A DNA stretch of 31,427 nt from a virus (taxonomy: Duplodnaviria > Caudoviricetes), in the IMG/VR virus record IMGVR_UViG_3300044858_002901, positions 1 through 31,427 of that record; one strand, 5' to 3'. Of the stretch, positions 3,151-26,588 are shown piece after piece. Numbering within the stretch: the first letter of the stretch is position 1; every line of letters starts with the position of its first letter. The translations under genes were made by a program, and so were the position numbers. The notes beneath the pieces were generated by a model. The model was not told the DNA's origin and did not search any database. It was given only the letters and a program-made list of their open reading frames with translations.

Positions 3151-4470
3151 TCACGCACCGACCAGGCCGATGATCGGGCCGGCTACCGTCGAGGTGCCGA
3201 GGTTAGCGTGCGTGATCGCCACGCGAGCCACCGCACGGATCACGGTCTGATCCGACAGGAAGTTCACCTGATCGCTGGACGCGATCTCGATGGCCTGGCG
3301 GATGCCGTAGTAGCTCGAGTTCGCCATGTTCCCGTAGAGGGCCATGATCGCACCCGTCGAGTCCGCACCGCTCGGGAGCCGGTCGGTGAGGACCACCGGC
3401 GAACCCAGGAAGGTCGGACCCATGCCAGCCGCCAGACCAACCGACCCGCCCTGGGCGAGGTCGAGGTTCTGCATGCACGTCGCAAAGAAGAACGGCGAGC
3501 AGAACCACTTGGCGCCCTGACGCGAGTGCTGCGGAACCGCAGCCATCATCGCCAGAAGGTTGGCCTTCGTGACCTCGTCGGGCGTGTCACCGGCAGCCGT
3601 CACAAGCGACGCCGCGTAGGTGGCAGCCGAAGACGCCAGCAGGCCACCCGTGTGGCTGGTCACAAGGCCAGCCACGGCAGGGGCGTTGCTCGGGTTGCCG
3701 CTCCACGCAGCCGCTTCCACGGCGTTGCTGAGCGTCAGCGACAGTTCCGCAGCGATCCAGTCGGCGATCGACACGATGGAGTCCTGCAGGAGCTCCGACG
3801 CGATGACCACCGCCCCGGTCACCTTCTTCGCCGTCAGCGTGACCTGGTTGGAGGTCGGGTCGCTGGCGGTGATTGCCGAGTTCTCGTCAATCCAGTACGC
3901 GGTCGCACCGGCAGTCCGACGCGGGAACAGCAGCACGTCGCTCGGCATCACAACGTTGGTGGCGTTCTGAGCAAACGCGGAGTACTGGTCCACGAGCCGG
4001 ATCACGGTCGAGGAGAGAACGTCGGGCACGAAGGCCGCGCCGGTCGTGGAACCGGTCGAACCCTGGGCACGAGCCTCAACGCCGTGGTCCTGGCACCACC
4101 GCTTAGCCTCAACGTCGCCGCCCTTGGCCTTGAACCACATGCCGACCGAGTACGCGTCCTTGGCGTTCCCGAACGCACGGAGCCGACCCGAGAACGGGAC
4201 CGCTTCGATGCGGACCTTCTCGCTCCGCTCCTCGGTGGCCTCGGGGGCCGGCGAGCAGCGATCCACCACGCTGCGGAGATTCTTCGCCGACTCGGCAACC
4301 GACTTCTCAAAGTCGATCTTCTTGGCGAGCTTGCCGGCGTCGGCCGTCAGCGTCTCGAGCTCGAGGTCACGCTCGGCGATCTTGTCCGCGTCGCCTTCGA
4401 TGGCCCGCACGGCGTCGATCCGGTTGGCGAGGGTAACGGCCTCGTCCTGCAGCTTCTTGAGGTTGTCCAC
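3151..4470 (-). CDS. major capsid protein, HK97 fold
   Basis: 439 aa with an N-terminal coiled-coil delta domain, GAAFVP, AYWIDE, VTLTAKKV...ASELLQDS and FLGSPVV motifs; follows the protease. Confidence 0.95.
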   Translation of the reverse strand: MDNLKKLQDEAVTLANRIDAVRAIEGDADKIAERDLELETLTADAGKLAKKIDFEKSVAESAKNLRSVVDRCSPAPEATEERSEKVRIEAVPFSGRLRAFGNAKDAYSVGMWFKAKGGDVEAKRWCQDHGVEARAQGSTGSTTGAAFVPDVLSSTVIRLVDQYSAFAQNATNVVMPSDVLLFPRRTAGATAYWIDENSAITASDPTSNQVTLTAKKVTGAVVIASELLQDSIVSIADWIAAELSLTLSNAVEAAAWSGNPSNAPAVAGLVTSHTGGLLASSAATYAASLVTAAGDTPDEVTKANLLAMMAAVPQHSRQGAKWFCSPFFFATCMQNLDLAQGGSVGLAAGMGPTFLGSPVVLTDRLPSGADSTGAIMALYGNMANSSYYGIRQAIEIASSDQVNFLSDQTVIRAVARVAITHANLGTSTVAGPIIGLVGA

Positions 4471-4515
4471 GTGTGTTCTCCGCCGGCGGTATTGCCGATG
4501 GAGTTCACGGTCGCA

Positions 4516-4686
4516 CTAGCGGGCACCCCTCTTGCAGAAGCGCACTTCAGAAAGTGTTGTTTTCACAAACACCACGCCACGGGCACCGCATCGCGGGCAG
4601 CGTAGATACCGCTGCCGCTCGTCACCGCATGGGCGCGAAGAACGGCACCGCAACTTCTCGCCGCACGTGCAGCGGGCGTCAGCCAT
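4516..4686 (-). CDS. 56-aa zinc-ribbon protein (Ogr/Delta-like)
   Basis: Translated by hand: MADARCTCGEKLRCRSSRPCGDERQRYLRCPRCGARGVVFVKTTLSEVRFCKRGAR. It overlaps the protease stop and is below the ORF-track size cutoff. Confidence 0.6.
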   Translation of the reverse strand: MADARCTCGEKLRCRSSRPCGDERQRYLRCPRCGARGVVFVKTTLSEVRFCKRGAR

Positions 4687-5329
4687 TGCGGAGCCTCAGA
4701 GAAGCAGCCCAGGCGGCGGCGACGCCCCGCAGGGCCGAACGCGAACGATCCGCCTGGGCCGCAGGCTCGGGCGTGGGCTCGGTCTGCGACGCCAGCCACG
4801 CTTCGTAGGAACGCATGGCGACGCCGGCCGACGTTGACGGGTAAGCGGGCACCAGAACCGGGCCAACGTCGTAAAGACCGCTCACCTCGCGGATCTGCCG
4901 CACTGCCTTGCCGTCTTCGCCGGTGCGGAACGATTCGTTCTTCGGGTCCACCGTGAAGGCGAACGACGAGCCACGCACGTCACGCCGCTGGATGAGCTCG
5001 AGCACGTCAGCCCGGCTCACGGGCGGCGTCACCACGTACCGCAGGCCCTTCTCGTCAGACGAGAGTTCCAGCGTGCCGGAAGACGTGCGACCGAGGACGA
5101 TGTTGCTGTCATGATTGAACAGGGCCACCACGTCGCCCTTGCCTCGCTGGCGGCTCAGGATCTTGTCGAACGCGCCCGGCAGGATCTCCTCTTTGAACCC
5201 GCCAAGGTCAAGCGAAAGACGGTTGTAGACGGCGGCGTAGCCGATGATCGCGGCCCGGCCATCGGCACGGCTTTCCACGATCAGTTCGTGCTCGTCCTCA
5301 AACGCAAAGTCGCGGCGTTCAATTTCCAT
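4679..5329 (-). CDS. HK97-type prohead protease
   Basis: GYAAVYN, E.ILPGAF, ALFNHD, GSSFAF and LYDVGPVLVPAY motifs. Confidence 0.95.
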   Translation of the reverse strand: MEIERRDFAFEDEHELIVESRADGRAAIIGYAAVYNRLSLDLGGFKEEILPGAFDKILSRQRGKGDVVALFNHDSNIVLGRTSSGTLELSSDEKGLRYVVTPPVSRADVLELIQRRDVRGSSFAFTVDPKNESFRTGEDGKAVRQIREVSGLYDVGPVLVPAYPSTSAGVAMRSYEAWLASQTEPTPEPAAQADRSRSALRGVAAAWAASLRLRNG

Positions 5330-6611
5330 CGGTCGCGTCCTCCTCTTCGGCCTGGTCTTCGGCGTCATCGGCCGGCGTGTCTTCAACCTCGACGGCTGGC
5401 TCGGGCATCGGCTCCGGGGCCGGCGGCTCCTGGCCCACCTTGTCCAGCGTGGTCATGTTCAACTGCACGAAGTGCTTGTCGCCTTCCGGCCCGATTGGGT
5501 TGAGGTTCTCAAGCTCGCGGATCTCGTTGATCGTCATCCACCCGTTCTGCAGGGCCGAGACGTAGTAGGCAGACCGGCTCGCGTGGTCGCCACGCAGTAG
5601 GCCACTCACGCTGTGCTCGGCGAAGTACCGCTCGTCATCAACGATGAGGTCGCGGCTGATGGCCGCTTCCCATCTCTTGAGATGTGGCAGCAGGCAGTGC
5701 TGCACGAACTCGGTGCCTTGCACTTCGATGTTGCTGTACGTCGAGCGGGTGAGGTCTTGGATCATGTGTGGCGGCACACGAAACGCCCGGCAGATCTCGA
5801 TCACCTGATACTGCCGCGTCTCAAGGAACTGGGCCGCCTCGTTGCTGCCGCTGAGCTCGTGAGCCTTAACGCCATTCGGTAGCACTGCCGTGCGGTGTGC
5901 TCGATCCGGCCCCCGGTGCATCCGCTCCCACTGCTCACGCAGACGCTCAGCCGCCTCTGCCGGGATCGGGTTGTCACTCTCCAGCACGATACCGGGCCGG
6001 GCACCGTTGCCGAAGTACGTGCTGCCGTGGGCCTCCAACGCCTGAGCCAGCCCGATGGCGTTCTGGAAAATCTTGTACGTGGGGATCGCCTTGATGCCGT
6101 CCTCGGTCGTGAATCGCAGGGCGAAGATCTGCTCTTGGCTGTAGACCGTCTGCCGGCCGCTCGGCTCGCGGTAGCGATACCGCAGCGTTCCGTCTTCAAG
6201 CCGCTCGGCTTCCATCCGAGACGAGTGCAACGGCCACAGCTCCGAGACCGCACCTCGAGCACCTGGGCGGATCTCGGCGTAGCTCGCACCGTAGTGGAGG
6301 TACATGCCCGTCATCCAATCGCGGAACTCTTGGGCCGTCTGCCACGGGTTGGGCTGCATGTGCAGCAGGCGATACACGGGGTGGCTCGTGGCCTTCTGCT
6401 TGCCACCGTTGGCGAGCCGCTCGAAGACGTGGAGCGGAAGGGCAGAGACGGCGTCAGAGATCACCCGGATGCAGGCCGTGTACGCCGAGCAAGCCATCGA
6501 GTTGTCAGCGTTGACGCGAACGCCAGACGGCGTACGGCTGGAAGAAACCTCGGGCCAGTCGATGCCACGCAGGTCGAACATCTTGTAGTCAGCGACGGCG
6601 TTTTCGTTCAT
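5319..6611 (-). CDS. portal protein, HK97 family
   Basis: LLHMQPNPWQT, FGNGARPGIVL, AQFLETR, EICRAFRVPPHMI and TINEIRELENL motifs. Confidence 0.97.
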   Translation of the reverse strand: MNENAVADYKMFDLRGIDWPEVSSSRTPSGVRVNADNSMACSAYTACIRVISDAVSALPLHVFERLANGGKQKATSHPVYRLLHMQPNPWQTAQEFRDWMTGMYLHYGASYAEIRPGARGAVSELWPLHSSRMEAERLEDGTLRYRYREPSGRQTVYSQEQIFALRFTTEDGIKAIPTYKIFQNAIGLAQALEAHGSTYFGNGARPGIVLESDNPIPAEAAERLREQWERMHRGPDRAHRTAVLPNGVKAHELSGSNEAAQFLETRQYQVIEICRAFRVPPHMIQDLTRSTYSNIEVQGTEFVQHCLLPHLKRWEAAISRDLIVDDERYFAEHSVSGLLRGDHASRSAYYVSALQNGWMTINEIRELENLNPIGPEGDKHFVQLNMTTLDKVGQEPPAPEPMPEPAVEVEDTPADDAEDQAEEEDATDGN

Positions 6612-8170: not shown

Positions 8171-8579
8171 CGGCTGAGACTCTCGCCAGGGCCGACGCCG
8201 TCAAACCGAACTGCTCTGCAAAACGCAGCATGTGCAGGCGGGCGTCCTTCTTGCGATACCAGGCCGGGTGATTCATCACCCTACCCTTATCGTCCATGAA
8301 CGTGGCCCCGTGCTGCTTCAGTTCCGCCTCGGCCTTCACCATGTCCGCCAGGGCGTCGCAGTACGCGGCCAGCGTGTGCTGGTGCCGCATGCTCATTACC
8401 TTCGACGCCTCAAGCATTGGCACGATCCGCTGCCACTCAGCACGGCCGATCTCGCACAGGTACGAAGGCGGCTCGGGAATGCCAGCAGGGGCTTCAATTC
8501 CGCTCTTATGCGGTCCCCTAACGCGAGCCCCTCGGAGCTTAAGAATCGGTTTAGGCGTAGGCTTCCGGCCCTTACCCAT
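8121..8579 (-). CDS. terS: terminase small subunit, P27 family
   Basis: GRKPTP..LKLRG, AEWQRIVP, NHPA and FGLTASALAR motifs; lies directly upstream of terL. Confidence 0.92.
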   Translation of the reverse strand: MGKGRKPTPKPILKLRGARVRGPHKSGIEAPAGIPEPPSYLCEIGRAEWQRIVPMLEASKVMSMRHQHTLAAYCDALADMVKAEAELKQHGATFMDDKGRVMNHPAWYRKKDARLHMLRFAEQFGLTASALARVSAVEQAASSDDEDRLMFG

Positions 8580-9328
8580 TACGCCACGCGATAGAACGAC
8601 GGGAACCGTGGCACGCCGGCGTCCGTCAGTTGCTGGTACTTGAACGTGAACACGGTGCCAACCGCTGGCGGATCACGACGCAGCGCGTCCGTCAGCCCTG
8701 ACGATACGCGGAACTCCGTGCCGTCTTGCAGTTGGGCAACCAAGGCACCAACGCAAGACGCATTGCGGCCGGTGCCGGATTCGTAGCCGACCACCGTCGC
8801 CTCGGCGTCGTGGAACGTCTTGACCTTGAGCAACGTGCCGCTTCGCTTCCGCTCATAGCGGCTGGCCGGCTGGCGAAGCATCAGCCCCTCGCCGCCTACT
8901 GCCTCAACGCGGGCGAGCTCCTCGAGCATGTGGGCCTGGCTCTCGCACCGCATCTGCGGCAGCACAAACGCTAGACCGCGATTGCCGATCGCGTCACGCA
9001 ACGCAGCCTGCCGATCCTCGAACCCGCCCAGCGACATCGGGGCATCAAACGCCGCGAACCGGATGGACCGCCATTCGTCGCCTCCGCCATGCGACCGCAC
9101 GACGCCGACTGTCTGCTGGAACTTGCCTCGGCCGATCCAGAGCTCGCCATCCAACGGCTCGCCAGCCGGCAAGCCGTCGAGGAACCACTGCGGGGCGTGG
9201 ATCTCCTGGCCAGAACGCGTGGCGAGCGTGCGGCAATCCCACACGGCCCGCACGCCGTCGAGCTTCTCACTCATCCACCAGCCAGCCGGATCGGAACCGG
9301 CCCACGTCTTCGCAAGTAGCACGGGCAT
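8579..9328 (-). CDS. minimal ATP-dependent DNA ligase
   Basis: Motif I SEKLDGVR, III LDGELW, IIIa FAAFD, IV EGLMLR, V LLKVK and a C-terminal PRFP OB-domain motif. GGAGG RBS; TGATG overlap. Confidence 0.93.
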   Translation of the reverse strand: MPVLLAKTWAGSDPAGWWMSEKLDGVRAVWDCRTLATRSGQEIHAPQWFLDGLPAGEPLDGELWIGRGKFQQTVGVVRSHGGGDEWRSIRFAAFDAPMSLGGFEDRQAALRDAIGNRGLAFVLPQMRCESQAHMLEELARVEAVGGEGLMLRQPASRYERKRSGTLLKVKTFHDAEATVVGYESGTGRNASCVGALVAQLQDGTEFRVSSGLTDALRRDPPAVGTVFTFKYQQLTDAGVPRFPSFYRVA

Positions 9329-9834
9329 CACGCATCCTCCAGGCCAAGTTGGGCCAGCGTCACAACGGCCGGTGCGTAGTCGCACGGCGACTTCGTCCAC
9401 GAGTACCACATGCCGTAAGGATGCCGCGAAGGCGGCAACACCGACTGGGCCGGAAGCCCGCCGAAACGCACCTCATAGCCGCCGATCTTTCGCCACCCGC
9501 ACTCAGGAATCGGATCAGCCAGGCGGAAAATGCGGTGCTCACCACGGCCGCTTGTATACGTCGGCGTGTCGGCGTTCAGCAGTCCGAGTTGCTTCACGAT
9601 CCTGAGGCCAGCAGCGTCATCAAACTCGACATCGACCAGGCCGCCATGCCCGCAGAGCAGGCCAACGTTATAGCCGGATGACAGCCACTCGGCGACCACA
9701 TCGGGCGACGTTGTCGCGGACTCATGCCACGCAATGCCGAGCGGCCTTTTGCTGCGGCGGCCAACTTTCACGCACGCCGCACCGTGCTCGAACAGGCCAA
9801 CAAGATCAGCATCACAAGCGACAGACAGCGACAT
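9328..9834 (-). CDS. stand-alone Prim-Pol (bifunctional primase/polymerase) domain protein
   Basis: NVGLLCG..LVDVEFD, TPTYTSGRGEHRIF and VLPPSRHP.G..YSW motifs. AAGGAG RBS. Confidence 0.82.
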   Translation of the reverse strand: MSLSVACDADLVGLFEHGAACVKVGRRSKRPLGIAWHESATTSPDVVAEWLSSGYNVGLLCGHGGLVDVEFDDAAGLRIVKQLGLLNADTPTYTSGRGEHRIFRLADPIPECGWRKIGGYEVRFGGLPAQSVLPPSRHPYGMWYSWTKSPCDYAPAVVTLAQLGLEDA

Positions 9835-14972: not shown

Positions 14973-15331
14973 CACTGCACCTCGCCGGCCTGGTCCTCGA
15001 ACGCGTCCAAGGCTTCGTCTGTCATTTCGATACGCTTGAGCGTCACGGGCTGGCTTTTGATTACGCGGCGGTCCTCGCGTACTTCCTCGCTCCACGTCGC
15101 CTGGATCTCTTTCTTGGTCTGCTCGATCTCGCGGGGCGTCGGGTCACGCTGTCGCACCGGCTTGGCCCGTAGTCGCCTGTCGTGCCGGGGCGGCAAATGC
15201 CAGACGTGCTTTAGCCTGATGACTTGGTCGCGGGAAATGGTCCACCGCTCGCACAGTGCCCTCATCGGCATGTGCGTCAGCCAATCGGCGCGGAAAGCGG
15301 CAACGCTAATGGTCGCCGTGCAGCCCTTCAT
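14969..15331 (-). CDS. HTH-like protein with RDPTP.EIE motif
   Basis: Helical MRALCERWTISRDQVIRLKHVWHLPPR segment; similar layout to the protein at 19434-19742. Confidence 0.6.
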   Translation of the reverse strand: MKGCTATISVAAFRADWLTHMPMRALCERWTISRDQVIRLKHVWHLPPRHDRRLRAKPVRQRDPTPREIEQTKKEIQATWSEEVREDRRVIKSQPVTLKRIEMTDEALDAFEDQAGEVQW

Positions 15332-16214
15332 TGTCGGTCATCCAAGCCATAACGCATCGCTGCGACGGGTTCAGGTAAAGGTGCTGGCCCGTCGCCTTGG
15401 CGACGCTTGCGTGATACGGAACGTGCTCGCAGTCTTTCACGCCGTCATATGTGCCTTGCAGGAAGGCTTCGGTGCGGTAGATGCACAGCCCGCCGAATGC
15501 AGACGAGACGAGCACGGGAGGCGAGCCAACCGGCGGCAGCCACTGATGCTTCCAGCCGCCAAGGCCAGCGGTGTAGTCATCAAAGTAGCAACGAGACTGC
15601 CCAACTCCACGCAACGCCCAGGCATCGTAGTGCGTCCATCCTTTGCCGATCTTCGGCTTGCGATCCTCGCTCATGCCTAGCATCGTGAACTCGTTGAGCG
15701 AGACGCTGGCCATGCCGTAGGCCCCCTGCAATTGCACGAGCCATCCGATGCCGTTGAGAACCCCGGCGTGCGACCACCCGCCCCACTGGTCCCAGTCGAT
15801 GACGATCACATAGTCGGCGTCGGCGGCACAATCACGCACCCACCGCTGGCACGCATCGCGGTACTCGGCCAGGGCAATCGTCCTGCGGCCTGCGAACTCG
15901 GCCCCGTAGTGCTCGCGGCCCAGAGTCTGCGAAGTAAACGTGGCCTGCTTATACGCATCGGAAAACTCCTGGAGCACCTGAAGCGTCTGGTCGGTGCTGT
16001 CGTTCTCTTCGATGTGCAGTGCCCACGACTTGCACGACCGCACAAGGTGCTCGAGCCGCCCGAGGTTCTCAGCCAGCCGCACGGCACAGTTGCGGGCCAG
16101 CCCGACGAAGGCGAGCTTGGAATTGGCTAGTCGTGTTACGCCATCCTCATACCTTTTTTGGAATAGCTCGGCGAACGGTTCCAACGGGTAGATAAGGTGG
16201 TCGGGAATGTTCAT
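15306..16214 (-). CDS. GT-A glycosyltransferase (CAP59/Anp1-like motifs)
   Basis: GLARNC, EENDSTDQT, LAEYRD, VIVIDWD (DxD), SAFGGLCIYR and DCEHV motifs. Confidence 0.78.
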   Translation of the reverse strand: MNIPDHLIYPLEPFAELFQKRYEDGVTRLANSKLAFVGLARNCAVRLAENLGRLEHLVRSCKSWALHIEENDSTDQTLQVLQEFSDAYKQATFTSQTLGREHYGAEFAGRRTIALAEYRDACQRWVRDCAADADYVIVIDWDQWGGWSHAGVLNGIGWLVQLQGAYGMASVSLNEFTMLGMSEDRKPKIGKGWTHYDAWALRGVGQSRCYFDDYTAGLGGWKHQWLPPVGSPPVLVSSAFGGLCIYRTEAFLQGTYDGVKDCEHVPYHASVAKATGQHLYLNPSQRCVMAWMTDNEGLHGDH

Positions 16215-16744
16215 TTCTTCCACGCGACTCCGAGGCCGTAGCCTTCCGTGATGATTTCGTGCGGTGCATTGTGCTTCGCCACGAACTCGTCAAAGCACTG
16301 CATGAGATCCGGGTGAGCCGGGTGCAAGATGTCATGGAACACCACGCAGCCGCCGGGCTTCACGAGCGGCCAGACGTTCACCAGATCGGCCATGCCGCCT
16401 TCGTATGAGTGGTCGCCGTCCACAAGCACAAAATCGAACGCTTCGGCCTTCTCGGGCATTAGCGCCGGGATCGTGTGTCGGCTGTTGCCGTCGAGAAACA
16501 CACGGCGTCCGTTAAAACTGAAATCGTCCAGCAGCTGCTCGATGTGCTGGTGGTTGCCGCGTCCGCTGCCGCCGTAGTCGCTGCCCCAAAGATCCGCCAC
16601 CCAGACCGAGAGCAGGTCGGCCGCGGCGTTCTCCAGCACGATTCGCAGCGAGTCGCCTTCACGGGTGCCGATCTCGAGGTAGTGCTCGACCTTGTGCCGT
16701 TGGCAGTGCTCAGTTAGGTAGCGGTAGAGGCTGGCGTTGCTCAT
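16211..16744 (-). CDS. class I SAM-dependent methyltransferase (Methyltransf_24-like)
   Basis: LEIGTREGDS, VDGDHSYEG and VKPGGCVVFHD motifs. Confidence 0.9.
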   Translation of the reverse strand: MSNASLYRYLTEHCQRHKVEHYLEIGTREGDSLRIVLENAAADLLSVWVADLWGSDYGGSGRGNHQHIEQLLDDFSFNGRRVFLDGNSRHTIPALMPEKAEAFDFVLVDGDHSYEGGMADLVNVWPLVKPGGCVVFHDILHPAHPDLMQCFDEFVAKHNAPHEIITEGYGLGVAWKK

Positions 16745-17244
16745 CCGATCCGCACGGTAGTCCGTGCCTCCGTCAAATGAAAAGTTGCCTCGTGCTCTGT
16801 CGCTGAGATGTCAAACGCAGTGACGGCAACAGCTAGCGCCGCCCATCGGTGCTGAGAAATGCCGTAAAGCGGGCCTGGCGACTTCTTGGTGCCAACTGCG
16901 CCGCACCTGTCAATCAGAGCCTGTCGAATGTTGCCGTCCTTGGCTCGCGGCGATTGGCACAAGTGCATCTTCACGTCGCGGCGAGGAACAAGCCGCAGGC
17001 TACGAACGTGCTGCGAGAACATGCCGATTGCGAAAACCGTCTCAAAAACCTCGCGGCCAACCGCCATGCCAAAGGACTCAATCCATTCGCACGCAACAGG
17101 GTCGCACGAAGAATCCAAGTACGCAGCAAGCTCGGCGTTTGGCATATCGCCAGAACGCACAACGCGAGCGCCGTTCCACACGACGTACGAAGAGTCGCGC
17201 GGGCCTGGGTCAATCCCGGTAACGGTTTCTCTGGTAAGCGCCAT
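16741..17244 (-). CDS. RuvC-like Holliday junction resolvase
   Basis: GIDPG near the N-terminus, a central acidic E (CEWIES), and a KDGNIRQAL...AALAVA C-terminus. Confidence 0.72.
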   Translation of the reverse strand: MALTRETVTGIDPGPRDSSYVVWNGARVVRSGDMPNAELAAYLDSSCDPVACEWIESFGMAVGREVFETVFAIGMFSQHVRSLRLVPRRDVKMHLCQSPRAKDGNIRQALIDRCGAVGTKKSPGPLYGISQHRWAALAVAVTAFDISATEHEATFHLTEARTTVRIG

Positions 17245-17358
17245 GCCCGCACTATCGCGAGCATGTCAAGCCGGGCATCCTTCACGGCGTTATCCGGCGT
17301 CGCCGTCTTTCTCGGTCGCGTGTCTGCCTAGCCGCCGCGAAACTCGGTTGGTCGCCGT

Positions 17359-17395
17359 ATTAGGCTGCGAACTGGCAGCCTAATTCTTGTTCTAT
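17359..17395 (+). other. left boundary of cassette array: perfect 10-bp inverted repeat plus lone GTT core site (attI-like)
   Basis: ATTAGGCTGC-GAACTG-GCAGCCTAAT followed by TCTT-GTTCTAT. GTTCTATTTC (17389-17398) is the exact reverse complement of GAAATAGAAC (17652-17661). Confidence 0.55.
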
Positions 17396-17625
17396 TTCTT
17401 GCCGACGCCCTTCATCCGCAGCCTCAGTAGCCGCCTTCGTTCGTCCATTGAGTCCCGTCGCTTCTGGAGCCGCTTTCGCTCGCGGCCGTCATAAAACACC
17501 ACCCACAACTCCAGGCGTTCATCAATCCAGTGAATGCCACGATCCAGCCTGCGAAGCGTCTCTCTGTCCTTCTGTGAAATCGCGGAGCCACGACTCGAAC
17601 GTGGGCCTTGAGTGCGCTTACTCAT
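17392..17625 (-). CDS. cassette 1 gene, basic hypothetical protein
   Basis: MSKRTQG... (alternative GTG start at 17637). The TAG stop lies inside the GTTCTAT core. Confidence 0.65.
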   Translation of the reverse strand: MSKRTQGPRSSRGSAISQKDRETLRRLDRGIHWIDERLELWVVFYDGRERKRLQKRRDSMDERRRLLRLRMKGVGKK

Positions 17626-17654
17626 GTTCTGCACCACCTAAACTACTCCGCGAA

Positions 17655-17705
17655 ATAGAACCACGCGATGCTGCGGACTAACGCCGCAGATCGCTGGCGT
17701 TCTGT
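17655..17705 (+). repeat. attC-like site 1 (51 bp)
   Basis: ATAGAAC-CACGC-GATGCTGC-GGACTAACGCC-GCAGATC-GCTGGC-GTTCTGT. Confidence 0.85.
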
Positions 17706-17707
17706 GG

Positions 17708-17917
17708 CTACTCGCACTCCAGCGAAACAAACGCCGGGACGAAAGCACCGCCGTAGGTGTCTCGGGTCTGCCGGAGAGCGTCTACCAGTTCCTGCCGCTG
17801 CTTCTGCAACTTGGCGATCACGGCGACAAGACGCCCCATAAGTTCAACGTCGCCGTATATGTCGGATTCCTGGCCGCTTGTGATTCGGTAGTTTGCGATC
17901 TCAACAATATCGTCCAT
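17708..17917 (-). CDS. cassette 2 gene, 69-aa hypothetical protein
   Basis: MDDIVEIANY...; GAGGTG RBS; coiled-coil-like segment. Confidence 0.7.
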   Translation of the reverse strand: MDDIVEIANYRITSGQESDIYGDVELMGRLVAVIAKLQKQRQELVDALRQTRDTYGGAFVPAFVSLECE

Positions 17918-17942
17918 GACTTCACCTCGTTTTTCTACGCTC

Positions 17943-17991
17943 ACAGAACCACGCGATGCAGCGGACGAGCCGCTGATCGCTGGCGTTCTCA
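17943..17991 (+). repeat. attC-like site 2 (49 bp)
   Basis: ACAGAAC-CACGC-GATGCAGC-GGACGAGCC-GCTGATC-GCTGGC-GTTCTCA. Confidence 0.85.
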
Positions 17992-18315
17992 CTTCGTTCG
18001 TTCCAGTAGGTCGCAGATCGCTTCGTAATCTTCAATCTGCTGCATTGTCATGTCGTTGTGATCCATGTCGCGGAACGCGATCCTCACCCTGTCCACCGCC
18101 TCCCGCTCCTCGTCGGTGAGCGTCGGCGAGCGGTAAAGCGGGACGACGCCGTGATTCCCTGTAACAGCCTCGTCAATCGCCTTGGCCTCTTCCTCGATGC
18201 CATAGACATCGTAGATTCGCTGGCCGTCAGCAAGCATCACAGCCCACGCAACTGGCTCCCCGTGAGAACCAGCGGATGCAAGAGACGGCTCGTTGGTGTC
18301 GTTTGGTTTGGTCAT
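17989..18315 (-). CDS. cassette 3 gene, LTDEEREA-family protein
   Basis: 108 aa, EPVAWAV...VVPLYRSPTLTDEEREA...LLERTK. AAGGAG RBS and ATG lie inside the attC3 loop. Confidence 0.8.
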   Translation of the reverse strand: MTKPNDTNEPSLASAGSHGEPVAWAVMLADGQRIYDVYGIEEEAKAIDEAVTGNHGVVPLYRSPTLTDEEREAVDRVRIAFRDMDHNDMTMQQIEDYEAICDLLERTK

Positions 18316-18352
18316 GTCTTCTCCTTGCCGCTCCTGATCCTTGTCGTTCTAC
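18263..18352 (+). repeat. attC-like site 3 (90 bp)
   Basis: TGAGAAC-CAGCG-GATGCAAG-AG(A)CGGC...GCCGCT-CCTGATC-CTTGTC-GTTCTAC. Confidence 0.78.
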
Positions 18353-18379
18353 GTCTCCACTTTCGCTCAAGAGCGCAAT

Positions 18380-18502
18380 TCAGCGGCGTCGCCGATGCCA
18401 GCGAGGCCGATGGCTGGGCTTGTGCGGGAACCCGATAGACAATGCGCCCATCATCACGACGAATACCGCCAAAGCCAGGACGATAACCGCTGTTTCGCTC
18501 AT
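18380..18502 (-). CDS. cassette 4 gene, 40-aa membrane peptide with Arg-rich tail
   Basis: MSETAVIVLALAVFVVMMGALSIGFPHKPSHRPRWHRRRR; GAGGG RBS. Confidence 0.65.
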   Translation of the reverse strand: MSETAVIVLALAVFVVMMGALSIGFPHKPSHRPRWHRRRR

Positions 18503-18521
18503 TGTTCCCTCTCTGATTCCC

Positions 18522-18611
18522 AGAGAACCACGCGATGCAGCGGACCCGCGATGCCGCCGTCTGGTTGTAGTTTCGTCAGCGGTCGCGGGCCGCTGATCGC
18601 TGGCGTTCTCA
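18522..18611 (+). repeat. attC-like site 4 (90 bp)
   Basis: AGAGAAC-CACGC-GATGCAGC-GG(A)CCCGCGA...TCGCGGGCC-GCTGATC-GCTGGC-GTTCTCA. Confidence 0.88.
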
Positions 18612-18842
18612 ACCAAGCCGTGCCAGTATCGACTCAATCGCCTTCCTGTGCGGTTCGTACATGATCGTCGGAAGCATCCCGCGCAACGCCTCCCGCTCCT
18701 CGTCGGTGAGCGCGGGCTGCGGCTCGCGGTATGGAGTGCCGTCAGGGTTTTGGCGGACGTAACCTGCCGATGGCGATGTGATCCACTGTCGGAACAATGC
18801 CTGCTGCTGTGAATCGAACCGCGCCTTCTCGTTGCCATCCAT
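18609..18842 (-). CDS. cassette 5 gene, LTDEEREA-family protein
   Basis: 77 aa, MDGNEKARF...QPALTDEEREAL; GGAGG RBS; TGA stop inside the core site. Confidence 0.75.
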   Translation of the reverse strand: MDGNEKARFDSQQQALFRQWITSPSAGYVRQNPDGTPYREPQPALTDEEREALRGMLPTIMYEPHRKAIESILARLG

Positions 18843-18858
18843 GATTGCCTCCATTCGT

Positions 18859-18907
18859 TGAGAACCAAGCGATGCAGCGGACGAGCCGCTGATCGCTGGC
18901 GTTCTCA
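18859..18907 (+). repeat. attC-like site 5 (49 bp)
   Basis: TGAGAAC-CAAGC-GATGCAGC-GGACGAGCC-GCTGATC-GCTGGC-GTTCTCA. Confidence 0.85.
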
Positions 18908-19138
18908 CTTCGTGCGCTCCAACAGCGACCAGAGTTTTGCGGAATCTGCGCCAACAACCCGATACATCGCGCGAAATATCACCTGCCGCTCCTCGTCGGT
19001 GAGCGTGGGCTGCGGAATCCAACTCCTGCGGTCCAGTTCTCTCGCCGCGTCCAGCAAAACGTCACTGTAATCGGCACCGCAAATGTTGAGCGCGTCGCTC
19101 ATGTCTCGCAGCCGTTCGGCCAGTTCGTTCTGTGTCAT
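18905..19138 (-). CDS. LTDEEREA-family protein at right end of array
   Basis: 77 aa, ELAERLR...AAREL...QPTLTDEERQV...LLERTK; AAAGGA RBS. Confidence 0.78.
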   Translation of the reverse strand: MTQNELAERLRDMSDALNICGADYSDVLLDAARELDRRSWIPQPTLTDEERQVIFRAMYRVVGADSAKLWSLLERTK

Positions 19139-19209
19139 ATCAACGTCCTTTCTCGGGCTGCTCTCTGTGGTCAGTGATGATCGCCGCCTATTTTCGCGGT
19201 TTTCGCTGA

Positions 19210-19437
19210 TTATCGGTCAAAATCCACGCGACACCGTGCAATCAGTTTCTCCAGCACGGCCGCGTGCCGCTCCTCTCCGGGCGTGTCGGCGTACGCCGCA
19301 AACCACGCAATCGCCTCCCGCTCCGCTTCGGTGAGCCGCAGGCGTGCGACCTCCGCCTCTAACTGCTGCACTCGCTCCATCGCCTGGATGAGCGCATCCA
19401 GATCGTCAGGCATCATCGGCGGCACAAGATCACTCAT
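19210..19437 (-). CDS. LTEAEREA-family protein (outside attC array)
   Basis: LEAEVARLRLTEAEREAIAWF; ATGA overlap with the upstream gene. Confidence 0.72.
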   Translation of the reverse strand: MSDLVPPMMPDDLDALIQAMERVQQLEAEVARLRLTEAEREAIAWFAAYADTPGEERHAAVLEKLIARCRVDFDR

Positions 19438-19742
19438 GCCACACCTCTCGGTTGATGTATCCGGCGCCGCCATTGCGACACTTTGCTGTGCGTGGTAGTC
19501 ACGTCTTCCGCCATGCGCTCCGCGATGTGACGTGCCTTTAGTTCCGCCTTCATCCGCTCGATCTCGTCTGGCGACGGGTCACGCGATACCTGACACGGCC
19601 GCGTTGGCCGTGCCGGCAGCTTATACCGGGCCGCCATTTTGTACGCCGTACTGGCCGAGACGCCGAAGCGATTGCCAATCGACTCGGCCGTCTCGCCAGC
19701 CATCCACATTCGCGTCAGGATCAATGCCGTCTGGTTCTCCAT
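19434..19742 (-). CDS. HTH protein, GcrA-like N-terminus
   Basis: LTRMWMAGETAESIGNRFGVSASTAYKMAARYKLPAR followed by RDPSPDEIE. Confidence 0.65.
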   Translation of the reverse strand: MENQTALILTRMWMAGETAESIGNRFGVSASTAYKMAARYKLPARPTRPCQVSRDPSPDEIERMKAELKARHIAERMAEDVTTTHSKVSQWRRRIHQPRGVA

Positions 19743-19744
19743 GG

Positions 19745-20854
19745 TCACTCCGTAGCCAGCGGCATGATGACGCCAGTGAACGTGTCGGTGCGGAGCACCA
19801 CGGCTGACTGTGCGTCGGTGGCCTGGACGCTCACCGTGGGCTCGCCGTCGGCCGGCAGGCCCGACAGCCACTCCCTGACGAACACCGGATCGAGCTTCAC
19901 CGTGCACGCCTTGCCGGCCTCCACGATGTCGCACGTCACGCTCGACTCGCCGGCCTCGGCCGACTGCCCGTGCAGGTGGATGCCCTCGGCAGTGAACGTG
20001 TACTGCACCCCCTTCGACTGCTCGCTCGTCACGATTGCCGCCGCCCTGGTCGCCGACAGCAACTCCGTGGCCAGCACCGTAGTCGGCTCGCCGCCATCCG
20101 ACGGGATCACGTCACGCCACCGCGGGAACCGGCCATCGGTCAGCCGAGCCGTGACGGTCGTGCCGCCAATCGTGGCCAGCAGCTCGTTGCCGGTGGCCTC
20201 CAGCTGCACAGAGCCATCCCCCGCCGCAACGGCGACGCGGGCGAGGATCTGCATCACCCGGCTCGGCACGAGCGTCGTGCTGTCATCCACCGCCAGGTCA
20301 TGCTCCATCTCGCACGAGCACAGCCGGCGGCCGTCCGTGGCCACGAACGTGACCACGCCGTCCTTCACGTCCACGAGCACGGCCCCGAGGGCGAACCGGC
20401 TGGACTCCTGGTCAGCCGCGAACACCACGCCACGCACCGCCCGAGCGAACTGGTCCGCCGGCAGCCGAGTCACCGGCTTGGCGTCCGCCGGCTCCCAGAT
20501 CGGGTATTCAGCCGCGTCCTCGACGGGCAGCGTCCACGTGCCGTGGCCACACCGCACGACGCACTGCGTCCCCTTCGTCTCCAGCGTCACCTCGTCACCT
20601 CCGGCAGCGCCGAGGATCGCCATGAGCCGTCCGTGCGGCAGCAGCATGGCATCGCCGTGGTAGTCGATGGCGGCGTCGATCCGCACCTCGAGGTCCGTGC
20701 CGGTTACGAGCCCGTCACCCAGACGCACGTTCGTCAGCACCGGCTTCGGTGCCCGGCTTGGCACCGCCGGACTGACAGCGGCGAGAGCACTCCTCAGATC
20801 GGCGACGCTCAATGTCACGCCACCACTCCGCTTGCGTTCCTTCGTTGCGGCCAT
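19745..20854 (-). CDS. dnaN: DNA polymerase III beta sliding clamp
   Basis: 369 aa with PKPVLTNV, GTDLE, SRFALGAV, VATDGRRL, RLTDGRFP and GVIMPL motifs. Confidence 0.93.
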   Translation of the reverse strand: MAATKERKRSGGVTLSVADLRSALAAVSPAVPSRAPKPVLTNVRLGDGLVTGTDLEVRIDAAIDYHGDAMLLPHGRLMAILGAAGGDEVTLETKGTQCVVRCGHGTWTLPVEDAAEYPIWEPADAKPVTRLPADQFARAVRGVVFAADQESSRFALGAVLVDVKDGVVTFVATDGRRLCSCEMEHDLAVDDSTTLVPSRVMQILARVAVAAGDGSVQLEATGNELLATIGGTTVTARLTDGRFPRWRDVIPSDGGEPTTVLATELLSATRAAAIVTSEQSKGVQYTFTAEGIHLHGQSAEAGESSVTCDIVEAGKACTVKLDPVFVREWLSGLPADGEPTVSVQATDAQSAVVLRTDTFTGVIMPLATE

Positions 20855-21196: not shown

Positions 21197-21414
21197 GACA
21201 CCACCTCGATTCCACGAGTCTGACGGGCACGGCGACGCAACAGCCCCTTCTTCTCCAGGGCACGGATGTGGCACATCGCACCGTTGGGAGAACGGAACCC
21301 GAAGTGGTCGCATATCTCGCGGACTGTCGGGCCGCAGAGCGCGGTGCGTTCGCGGACGAACGCAAGGATCTCTCGCTGGCGGTCGGTGGCGGGTGGCGGC
21401 TGCGTGGTGGTCAT
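21193..21414 (-). CDS. LexA-type winged-helix DNA-binding domain only
   Basis: TDRQREILAFV...PTVREICDHFGFRSPNGAMCHIRALEKKGLLRR; no peptidase domain. Confidence 0.88.
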   Translation of the reverse strand: MTTTQPPPATDRQREILAFVRERTALCGPTVREICDHFGFRSPNGAMCHIRALEKKGLLRRRARQTRGIEVVS

Positions 21415-22313
21415 AGGCTCTCGTCCTTGAGTTTGAGTGTCGTGGCAAGCGCAGTTACTACGCCTGCACCTTGCTTGTCTCGGCGCCAGATGGCGTACTC
21501 ACGCTCGGTCATGTTCTGGCCGGCATCGCCACGCCAGTAGCGTTTCTTCGCCTGGTCAACCGGCGGCGGTGTCGCCTGCCGTGCAGCCTCTCGGTGGGTG
21601 CCACCACGATCCTGGCACTTGCTCAGCCACACAGTGGTGAGCCAGCGTCGCCAGTTCGATTTGCGTGCCTTCTTGGGGTTCGCCTTCAGCCACTGATTGG
21701 CCTTGGCGAGTTCAACGGGAAGGTCAGCCGCCGGGTAAGCCTGTGACCATTCCGCATGGTCAGCGTCGGTGATTCCTTCCCAGCCCGATTCCGCAGACCA
21801 CCGAAGCGGATCGGCCGGCTTCGAGCATCGCCGCCGCTGCGGCGTGCTCGGAGCACCCAAAGGATTAGAGGTAGAAGGATTAGAGGTAGAAGGATATAAG
21901 GCGCAAGAAGCCGGGGGATTTCCCGGCTCCAGCGTTGGATTTCCCGGCTTTGCGTTTCGCTCGGGAAAAACGATGGTTTCCGCCGATTCGTCGGGTGGAG
22001 GCAGCCCTTCGTCACGCTCGTCTGGGTGACACCTCTGGTGCTCCCCAAAAGTCGGGATCTCAAGCACCTTCACGTTGCCCGATTCGTAGGCTCGGACGAA
22101 GCCCCTGTCGGCCAGCTGCTTGAGCAGGCCGACGATGTCGCAGTTCTCATACGGGAAGAGCTCGGCCTTGATCCGCAGCGGGCGGAACTCCATCCGGCCC
22201 TGGCTGTCGGCCAGCGTCCAAAGCCCGACGAAGAGCAGACGAGCCATCGGCTCGCACTCGGCCAGGTACTCGTTCTTGAAGAACGACGGCTTGATGCTAC
22301 GAGTGCGTGCCAT
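21411..22313 (-). CDS. phage replication initiator (replisome organiser)
   Basis: MARTRSIKPSFF...ARLLFVGLWTLADSQGR N-terminus, a repetitive linker, and a C-terminal YP..D...EL.KA..WL.ANP domain. Confidence 0.82.
   Translation of the reverse strand: MARTRSIKPSFFKNEYLAECEPMARLLFVGLWTLADSQGRMEFRPLRIKAELFPYENCDIVGLLKQLADRGFVRAYESGNVKVLEIPTFGEHQRCHPDERDEGLPPPDESAETIVFPERNAKPGNPTLEPGNPPASCALYPSTSNPSTSNPLGAPSTPQRRRCSKPADPLRWSAESGWEGITDADHAEWSQAYPAADLPVELAKANQWLKANPKKARKSNWRRWLTTVWLSKCQDRGGTHREAARQATPPPVDQAKKRYWRGDAGQNMTEREYAIWRRDKQGAGVVTALATTLKLKDESL
21860..21949. repeat. iteron-like repeats / putative replication origin
   Basis: AAGGATTAGAGGTAG twice plus AAGGAT (21860-21895); GGATTTCCCGGCT at 21916 and 21937 (21-bp period). 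Confidence 0.55.
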
Positions 22314-23064
22314 CCGTGGCCTCCTGTACGCGCTTAGACCTTTGCGAATCCCTTTGGGCCGCACGCAAATTTGAAGCGCCATTGCCAGCCGGATTTAGAA
22401 GCCCGACGAAAAGAGCCTCAATACGAAGTCTGTCGTTCTTGTCGCAGTGCAATACCCCAACCATCCTGTCGCCAATCTCTGGCCTCGATGCCTGAACACG
22501 AGAAGGAACGTTGATACTTTCTCCTACATAGTGTGCTGTTCCGTCACTATTCCAAGCGATGTACACGCCAGAGAACGGGTCCATGGCGTTGACATCCCTT
22601 GCCGTGTAAAGCGGAGGCGGAGGCGTAGGCAAAGTGTTAAGTAATTTGCCGCACTCAGCCGCAAGGATTGCCTCTCTGGCCTCTGGGTTTCTTGCTGCGT
22701 CACGCCAAGACGCAAAAAGGAACTGCCTCACTATTCCAGCGGGCCACTCAAACCGCTTGACCTTGCCTTCATATCCAGCCTTCTTGATTCGTAGCCCCTT
22801 CGTCTTTGGGTGCAGTTTCTGGTCCGTTTGCCCAACGTCAGCACTGCCGCTCAAGTCCATCGGAAGTCTGTGTTCGTCGCGCCTATTCCAATCAAATGTG
22901 ACGTGAACAGAGCCTTCCGGCTGACGCTTTAAAATCCACACCTTGGCAGCCAGCGGATCGCCGATGTGGTCCAGCTCATAAAACAAATCGAGCGGCGTCC
23001 ACGACGGTTCAAGCACAACAACGCTGGTCGTATTGTCAGGCCACAAGGCAACGACTGTAGGCAT
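22297..23064 (-). CDS. protein with C-terminal GIY-YIG-like nuclease domain
   Basis: SGVYIAW....HYVGESINVPSR...IEALFVGLLNP..N. Visibly less GC-rich than its neighbours. Confidence 0.65.
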   Translation of the reverse strand: MPTVVALWPDNTTSVVVLEPSWTPLDLFYELDHIGDPLAAKVWILKRQPEGSVHVTFDWNRRDEHRLPMDLSGSADVGQTDQKLHPKTKGLRIKKAGYEGKVKRFEWPAGIVRQFLFASWRDAARNPEAREAILAAECGKLLNTLPTPPPPLYTARDVNAMDPFSGVYIAWNSDGTAHYVGESINVPSRVQASRPEIGDRMVGVLHCDKNDRLRIEALFVGLLNPAGNGASNLRAAQRDSQRSKRVQEATDGTHS

Positions 23065-26303: not shown

Positions 26304-26582
26304 CTACTTCCGGCGACGTGCGGCCTTCTTGGCCGTCTTCCGTTTGGCGGCTGGCCGCTTGGCGAGATGCCGCTTGCCATTGGCCCTGGTCGTCAGGCCC
26401 GCCTTGGCCTCGGTGGCGGCGGCCTCGGGGATGAGCCAGACCCGCTGGCCGATCCGCTTCGCTCCGCGGAGCTTGCCAGCGCCCAGGAGTGTCCGCACCC
26501 ACGCCTCGGAGCACCCCATGTACTCGACGGCCTCGGATACGGTGAGCCACTTGCCCGGCGCAAAGTCTGCCATAGCGATCAT
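26304..26582 (-). CDS. excisionase-like HTH (HTH_17/MerR-like) with Lys/Arg/Ala tail
   Basis: WLTVSEAVEYMGCSEAWVRTLL..GKLRG.KRIG.RVWLIP; divergent from the recombinase. Confidence 0.82.
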   Translation of the reverse strand: MIAMADFAPGKWLTVSEAVEYMGCSEAWVRTLLGAGKLRGAKRIGQRVWLIPEAAATEAKAGLTTRANGKRHLAKRPAAKRKTAKKAARRRK

Positions 26583-26588
26583 GCCCAA

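Follow-up and report, generated by a model that had tools for sequence, protein, structure and literature searches.

An attI-anchored array of inverted attC cassettes in a tailed phage without its own integron integrase, likely served by a Pirellulales host

Classical integrons insert gene cassettes at an attI site and bound each of them with an attC site comprising R and L boxes, an unpaired spacer, a pair of extrahelical bases separated by 6 bp, the last of them a T, and a variable loop, with the crossover at G/TT (PMC4889954, PMC8946536, PMC5027507 and PMC5371416, in their accessible parts). The accessible part of PMC4889954 also defines attC-site clusters that lack an integron integrase (CALINs) by at least two attC sites with no neighbouring integron integrase, and states the origin of cassettes as unknown. 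Integrons have been seen as tools of bacteria and, of late, as repositories of anti-phage genes, and attC clusters in phages have so far been reported as rare captures, with 17 CALINs among 10,705 phages and 5 of 6 tested sites recombining with IntI1 at attI1 (Qi, Rajabal, Ghaly, Tetu and Gillings 2023, PMC9892861). Here we describe an array of five attC-geometry sites in a 31,427-nt stretch of virus DNA (IMG/VR record IMGVR_UViG_3300044858_002901; by "the window" we mean this whole stretch), a tailed phage genome fragment encoding terminase, portal, protease, capsid, RecT and clamp as judged by a Pfam scan. We consider it likely that the array is an integron platform without an integrase of its own, in which attC cassettes lie behind an attI-like site and are moved at G/TT, most plausibly by the IntI of a Pirellulales host acting in trans.

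Like the phage CALINs of PMC9892861, the window holds a cluster of attC sites without an integrase in a phage genome; with five attC sites and no neighbouring integron integrase, it falls under the definition given above. It differs from them in that 1) the arrays of TJE1 and PH101 have the typical cassette structure whereas the window cassettes are inverted; 2) attI was found there just in a cryptic Shewanella prophage and in class 1 fragments, whereas the window has a phage attI-like start; and 3) that study contains neither shuffling among related phages nor a planctomycete phage, whereas we find G/TT variation across about 100 loci with phage-type genes. Sedentary integrons of freshwater Pirellulales (L097, L373, L377-L380, L382, L385, L438) share with the phage arrays the attC family, a related attI, complementarity of R'' to the start of its own cassette and sites on one strand, but they carry intI beside attI, top-strand genes, cassettes of median 608 bp and a cargo of toxin-antitoxin and membrane genes, whereas the phage cassettes are mostly 230-520 bp and inverted. 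In addition, GTT is followed by CT or AT in 314/343 phage sites vs. CG or AG in 38/52 host sites, with the host sites, too, departing from GTTRRRY. Compared with the classical integron, as laid out in the accessible parts of the four papers cited first, the window has the same attC anatomy, G/TT crossover and insertion at attI, but no intI and no visible cassette promoter (Pc), genes that face attI, starts that often lie in attC and stops in or near R'. The accessory genes of mosaic early regions in tailed phages (DUF551 etc.) are likewise small and variable and sit between replication and resolvase genes; those of the window differ in being packaged between recombination sites with fixed breakpoints. 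The window functions like an integron, having the CALIN make-up and the attC structure and lacking both intI and the usual gene orientation. We found no description of an inverted, attI-anchored and actively exchanged phage platform in the literature covered, including PMC9892861 and the accessible parts of PMC4889954, PMC8946536 and PMC8876359, most subscription papers and bioRxiv supplements lying outside that coverage.

A structural scan of both strands of the full window yielded exactly five sites of the form AAC, 5 nt, L'' (8 nt), loop, L' (7 nt), 6 nt, GTT, and none in any of 30 dinucleotide-type shuffles of the window, with thresholds that had been fixed after the five sites were seen. 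AAC lies at 17659, 17947, 18267, 18526 and 18863, and the GTT ends fall at 17701, 17987, 18348, 18607 and 18903; the crossover G positions, with that of the left end, are 17389, 17699, 17985, 18346, 18605 and 18901, and the + strand is the attC top strand at all five sites (Table 1). A preliminary description of this DNA had reported five such palindromes, units of 310, 286, 361, 259 and 296 bp, an extra base in L'', a second unpaired base in the two long sites and a compensatory pair in site 1; the scan recovered the palindromes, recomputation gave the same lengths, and each of the other features is present. In the folds, the extrahelical bases stand opposite the bottom-strand AAC with a terminal T and a 6-bp stem between them, the extrahelical T of the short sites being at the loop edge. 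The minus strand, tried as the attC top strand, was ruled out by the attI-like left end and the full attC at the right. No match to 17300-19200 was seen in a collection of isolated phages.

The same family of sites recurs in related phages, which were gathered with the exact short-site pattern (94 stretches in viral contigs) and also via the resolvase (21 loci) and the clamp (best 80 of 150). We counted 343 sites in 101/182 phage loci (overlapping loci included, 14 short loci excluded), and within each locus none is opposite to the rest; CT follows GTT in 266 of the 343. The proportion of Watson-Crick pairing at the seven L-box positions is 93-100% in the 164 distinct sites vs. 60-99% when shuffled, with compensated changes of several pair types at five positions, in keeping with the earlier claim that structure rather than sequence is conserved, although the detector demanded 5/7 L pairs and a G at the extra position and so biased both features high. 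The second extrahelical base is a T preceded by a 6-bp stem, as the accessible part of PMC5027507 requires, and the bottom strand folds more stably in 106/164 sites, equally in 4 and less in 54 (mean difference 0.5 kcal/mol). About 17 cassettes stand in a row in L012 (G009), a 97-kb phage (L049, G026) has >12 sites, and the arrays of G056, G083 and G085 lie at differing genome places. A 3.3-kb contig of an unclassified bacterial bin (L095) holds a pure inverted phage-type array of 7 sites and is probably a binned piece of phage.

In an excised cassette circle, the R'' of the site pairs with the start of its own cassette. Among 123 distinct attC-to-attC cassettes of up to 560 bp, R'' complemented its own start at 4/4 in 103, as compared with 18 for the in-place R' and with a mean of 24.3 and a maximum of 39 in 10,000 permutations pairing R'' and starts at random; first cassettes were excluded because their starts had been located by this very rule. 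Host arrays, as positive control, gave 18/24 for the own start and 1/24 in place. The complementarity is also present where R boxes are rare, and it holds for four of the five window cassettes, cassette 4 failing. Comparison of neighbours gives the same unit. Among 13 cassette pairs with homology across their full bodies, none shares its right neighbour and 9 also differ on the left, where the remaining 4 have a short attC of the same type. In four of the pairs, the same cassette follows an attC in one phage but abuts an attI-like end in a second phage; in two, it follows attI-like ends that are distinct from each other. Identity begins at G/TT, which places the crossover at that point and shows insertion directly at the attI-like site. 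Close relatives of the window phage (clamp 88-95% identical) vary here both in the cassettes that they carry and in the number of detected sites, from 0 to 5. Related phages therefore vary in which cassettes they have, how many and in what order, the breakpoints being at G/TT. The preliminary description had named identical gene order or breakpoints away from G/TT among the findings that would refute its shuffleable array, and the array passes that test; judged from these alignments, the cassettes almost certainly shuffle at G/TT.

A further instance was found on comparing four lake runs, where a single 1601-nt contig of run X1 (depth 21) joins 17388 to 17699 with 0 other differences and 17428-17635 has no coverage, while contigs of X2, X10 and X14 pass through cassette 1. 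The absence of cassette 1 in X1 is exact within the 5 letters shared at the crossover; the order of events is open to both gain and loss, with insertion at attI seemingly the simpler reading. As to cassette 4, three runs carry an abundant relative of 18361-18607 with a different start and an attC like site 4 before it, and a tandem copy, a circle or a neighbour of the same type all fit these contigs. Back-joints in lake contigs (e.g. 18607 to 18361) were considered as excised circles and rejected, their letters being unlike the window. In relative L025, one cassette occurs twice in the same array (4417-4776 and 5557-5916 in oriented coordinates, 96% identical).

Among 93 candidate first-cassette starts, 32 distinct left ends conform to the attI-like rule and form two classes of 16, that of the window having a hairpin and an AAT box ahead of GTT. 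Two Pirellulales genomes, one of them L097, have an attI 224 nt upstream of intI with which the left end of the window aligns, and about 30 nt are almost identical between the attI of L097 and the left end of phage L009. A profile built from the 16 phage left ends alone had as its two best matches in 631 kb (80 intI loci) the attI of L372 (= L097) and of L373; the layout of hairpin plus AAT-N6-GTT is present in 9/11 close host loci, and phages L008 and L009 have left ends that share long stretches with host attI regions. About ten relatives combine one and the same left end with different first cassettes. An attI-like site stands at the head of the array, as supported by position and first-cassette turnover, with a moderate likeness to host attI and a different spacing. 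The extent of 17389..19138 given earlier for the array begins correctly at the attI-like G, but the ORF at its right end, 18905-19138, belongs to a decayed sixth cassette. The remnant at 19130-19163 retains the right part of an attC loop and the L' box, with R'', L'' and R' gone; it is identical over 34/34 nt to part of an intact attC in L034, and loose contig ends at 19125 and 19163 run on into an intact site. Judging from this remnant, in which ORF 18905-19138 has its start, the ORF is a cassette fixed through loss of its attC.

In contrast to host cassettes, of which 19/24 have their longest ORF on the top strand, 103/123 phage cassettes have it on the bottom strand, with stops clustering 1, 4 and 9 nt from the cassette start. 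The genes around the array in the window are all on the minus strand and all cassette ORFs are thus on the attC bottom strand. Recognizing that these genes face attI, we note that a Pc could not express them; 16700-20000 contains 0 sigma-70-like sites. An ATG lies inside the own attC in 59/78 long-site cassettes, window cassette 3 included, vs. 1/78 short-site ones. The earlier statement that exactly one ORF lies between successive sites needs amending: in unit 3 the start of the ORF is within site 3 rather than between sites, and the ORF of unit 4 has only 40 aa. The cargo looks phage-native in its sequences: C-terminal modules are common to 28 (the LTDEERE-like module) and 20 of 142 cassette proteins, DUF551 matched 3/4 cassette proteins of relatives that were scanned, and a comparison of the phage cassette proteins with 124 host loci gave a match for just one of the proteins. 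The locus matched, L096, a single binned Pirellulales contig with chromosomal genes, has an attI-like end followed by an inverted phage-type first cassette (4634-5042; protein 94% over 50 aa to the phage one) and then by a canonical cassette. Its array has no adjacent intI; the same bin has intI elsewhere (L377). Searches of Pfam, NCBIfam and PHROGs with the window cassette proteins returned no informative family. The cassette 3 protein has 245 relatives among 50%-identity clusters, many aligning over part of the protein, and its Atlas matches are all under 0.9.

We found no IntI above the cut-off in 45 array-bearing phage records (completeness at least 90% in 11; 4 loci not included), no intI with the IntI-specific insertion among the window proteins and none beside the attI-like site, and no IntI relatives in viral contigs by a word search that detects close relatives only. 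The Pirellulales bin of L097, on the other hand, contains a complete integron of the same attC family, with an IntI scoring 406 bits vs. the cut-off of 265. The attC motif is present in 122/151 genomes of the Pirellulales family of G046, an upper count in which one recurring single match may be coding sequence, with up to 14 per genome vs. at most 3 for the reversed control; a loose attC pattern gave at least 123 matches in genomes, most by chance, the family site being present in 13 of those loci. Because canonical integrons of that family are filled with the same attC family, we regard it as the likely host of the phage and its IntI as probably the acting enzyme. The earlier reading stands as regards a shuffleable attC array; it made no mention of gene inversion, of an attI-like platform, of the missing IntI or of the likely host. 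The second intI of the host bin (G046:C230, L123) has one in-frame TAG within the profile match, and a second clamp gene in the bin (G046:C195, L472), 58% identical, is probably part of a related phage fragment.

The phage's own tyrosine recombinase, P0001, might shuffle the cassettes at G/TT in place of the host IntI, which we consider unlikely. P0001 is a short recombinase without the arm-binding extension, PF00589 matches occur in 25/45 array-bearing records with 17 of 20 retrieved proteins matching P0001, none of 10 P0001 homologue loci in host bins lies beside a tRNA, leaving a prophage-integrase role unsupported, and the spacing of the window attI is unlike that of the host; these features would suit such a role. 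However, P0001 scores weakly to tyrosine-recombinase models and lacks the IntI-specific insertion, which folded attC binding needs (PMC4889954, accessible part), it lies 8 kb away from the array, and the sites belong to the family of IntI-bearing host integrons. Of 17 relatives at least 90% complete, drawn from 49 relatives chosen mostly for lacking sites near clamp or resolvase, P0001 is present in 12/12 without the attC motif and 4/5 with it, while 3/11 near-complete array-bearing records have no PF00589 match; 9/151 genomes of the G046 family have P0001 relatives. Being equally common in array-free relatives and missing in some array-bearing ones, P0001 is, on this distribution, a core gene not tied to arrays, and its family is near-universal in these phages (16/17 near-complete relatives). 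It is divergent from a small HTH_17 gene (26304-26588), and some members of its family have altered catalytic motifs.

More improbable still is that the sites were captured once from a host and now serve as mere repeats for RecT-type homologous recombination, making the locus a mosaic hot spot. The phage encodes RecT, short homologies are available in attC arms and in the LTDEERE coding repeat, the cassette proteins are mosaic, and attC arms and loops are sometimes swapped, all of which such a process could explain. Yet attI-like ends share just about 5 nt with attC and the same cassettes join both exactly at G/TT, and these attI/attC junction pairs already largely refute the RecT explanation; moreover, L'' and L' remain matched within sites, a match that crossovers inside the loop would break, and own-start complementarity persists for rare R boxes. 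That the palindromes are RNA elements of the early operon (processing, termination or translation-start hairpins) with an incidental attC likeness is scarcely credible. Their position in a transcribed operon and the start codon that many of them surround would fit it, but a search of 16500-20000 against Rfam gave nothing at E up to 1, these sites also delimit canonical cassettes beside bacterial intI, where the genes run in the other direction, and an RNA role leaves complementarity of ends 300 nt apart and exact gain or loss at G/TT unexplained; a secondary RNA effect is possible.

Several observations weigh against our preferred interpretation, exchange of the cassettes at G/TT by a host IntI: 1) the extra base of the L box is C on the bottom strand, G being usual, and the R boxes read GTTCT in all five window sites, departing from the RYYYAAC/GTTRRRY consensus; 2) the attI profile matches are weak (E 0.09 and 0.23; 2/80 intI loci at such scores), and the second class of phage left ends, as a profile, matched no host attI among the 80 intI loci; 3) the AAT box is 4 nt from GTT in the window vs. 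6 nt in hosts; 4) the left-end motif of the window had 44 genome matches, 0/44 beside intI and 1 with attC-like sites downstream, a search that is uninformative because the pattern would miss the known attI of L097 too; 5) by the crude longest-ORF rule, 20/123 phage cassettes have a longer top-strand ORF and 5/24 host cassettes a bottom-strand one; 6) the cassette 1 deletion is known from one contig of one run; 7) 4/13 pairs with the same body carry different attC arms, joined at AA/C, and 1/13 differs in the loop alone; 8) the phage has a tyrosine recombinase of its own as well as RecT, and the virus records searched for IntI are all linear and may be incomplete; 9) the host is assigned from shared sites rather than from a prophage junction or spacer; and 10) the counts are not independent, cassettes and phages being related to one another. 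On the third point, the pairing of one end with different first cassettes in about ten relatives suggests that the shorter, 4-nt-spaced site may work. On the seventh, bottom-strand recombination alone does not yield such a pattern; the exchange of leaders takes another path, which is either homologous recombination or recombination of the top strand, the latter known to occur less often (PMC9892861; PMC5027507, accessible part).

We surmise that, during infection or lysogeny, cassettes would be released through attC x attC recombination by a host IntI, attC acting as a folded bottom strand, and that the excised circles would be inserted at the phage attI-like site. An early or replication promoter at the far end of the array may transcribe the genes, in which case transcription would reach the newest cassette last and a Pc would be superfluous. 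At about three quarters of the long sites, the attC loop would give its own gene the ribosome-binding site and N-terminus, with an occasional R'' exchange swapping the leader. If the fork runs leftwards from the replication initiator gene (21411-22382), the bottom strands would be on the lagging-strand template, a position that raises excision (PMC5371416, accessible part). In a wider reading, which we favour only slightly over its negation, freshwater planctomycete phages domesticated a host integron by acquiring their own attI, making mirror-image cassettes from phage genes with the start codon in the attC loop and the stop in the R box, sharing a pool across phages of 34-97 kb via host IntI, varying N-termini by R'' exchange and occasionally depositing a cassette in the host chromosome.

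A common lake-phage group thus appears to run its own attI-anchored cassette system with a host enzyme, which, if true, would let phage genomes become mosaic in a site-specific manner and allow genes to pass in both directions between phage and host arrays. Phage-gene cassettes with attC leaders, matched ends, swapped arms and decayed remnants would render the origin of cassettes testable by comparative genomics and by simple assays, and, if the domestication reading is true, phages would be a living place to observe the birth of new cassettes.

Table 1. Features of the array and its surroundings (positions in the window)
Feature	Positions	Strand	Remarks
attI-like primary insertion site	17341..17393	+	crossover G 17389; 10-bp hairpin 17359-17384
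Cassette 1	17390..17699	+	310 bp; newest position; R'' complements own start over 7 nt past triplet
Cassette 1 gene	17392..17637	-	81 aa (77 from inner ATG); basic; no family match; stop in R' box
attC 1	17655..17705	+	short type; compensatory T/A pair in L box; structural scan
Cassette 2	17700..17985	+	286 bp
Cassette 2 gene	17708-17917	-	69 aa; 44% homologue in cassette of relative L135
attC 2	17943..17991	+	short type; structural scan
Cassette 3	17986..18346	+	361 bp
Cassette 3 gene	17989-18315	-	108 aa; ribosome-binding site, ATG and first 17 codons inside attC 3
attC 3	18263..18352	+	long type; loop contains start of own gene; structural scan
Cassette 4	18347..18605	+	259 bp; sole window cassette with R'' vs. 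own start at merely 2/4
Cassette 4 ORF	18380-18502	-	40 aa; no family match
attC 4	18522..18611	+	long type; structural scan
Cassette 5	18606..18901	+	296 bp
Cassette 5 gene	18609-18842	-	77 aa (81 from upstream ATG)
attC 5	18859..18907	+	short type; structural scan
Decayed sixth cassette	18902..19163	+	gene 18905-19138 (-), 77 aa; attC remnant 19130-19163
Coding repeat (LTDEERE-like C-terminal module), four copies	18085, 18675, 18968, 19300 (span 18085..19342)	-	repeat family D1
Holliday junction resolvase	16741..17244	-	phrog_1770; flank, outside array
HTH gene	19434-19739		precedes beta-clamp gene; flank, outside array
Beta-clamp gene	19745..20854	-	Pfam; flank, outside array
Tyrosine recombinase P0001	26727..27740	+	not an IntI; rival candidate enzyme

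The matches to phrog_1770 and to the Pfam beta clamp bear out the earlier placement of the array between a resolvase and a clamp. A search for the origin of replication returned just two short-repeat pairs in the initiator gene, and the origin was not located; these are two 15-nt and two 13-nt direct repeats at 21860-21949, possibly iterons. Downstream of the resolvase, at 15306-16744, are a methyltransferase (Methyltransf_24/TylF-like) and a 305-aa protein that matches no family, both conserved in many relatives, with the resolvase gene between them and the array often replaced. At 8579-9834, directly before the terminase genes, lie a small ATP-dependent DNA ligase and a gene with a primase-polymerase N-terminal domain.

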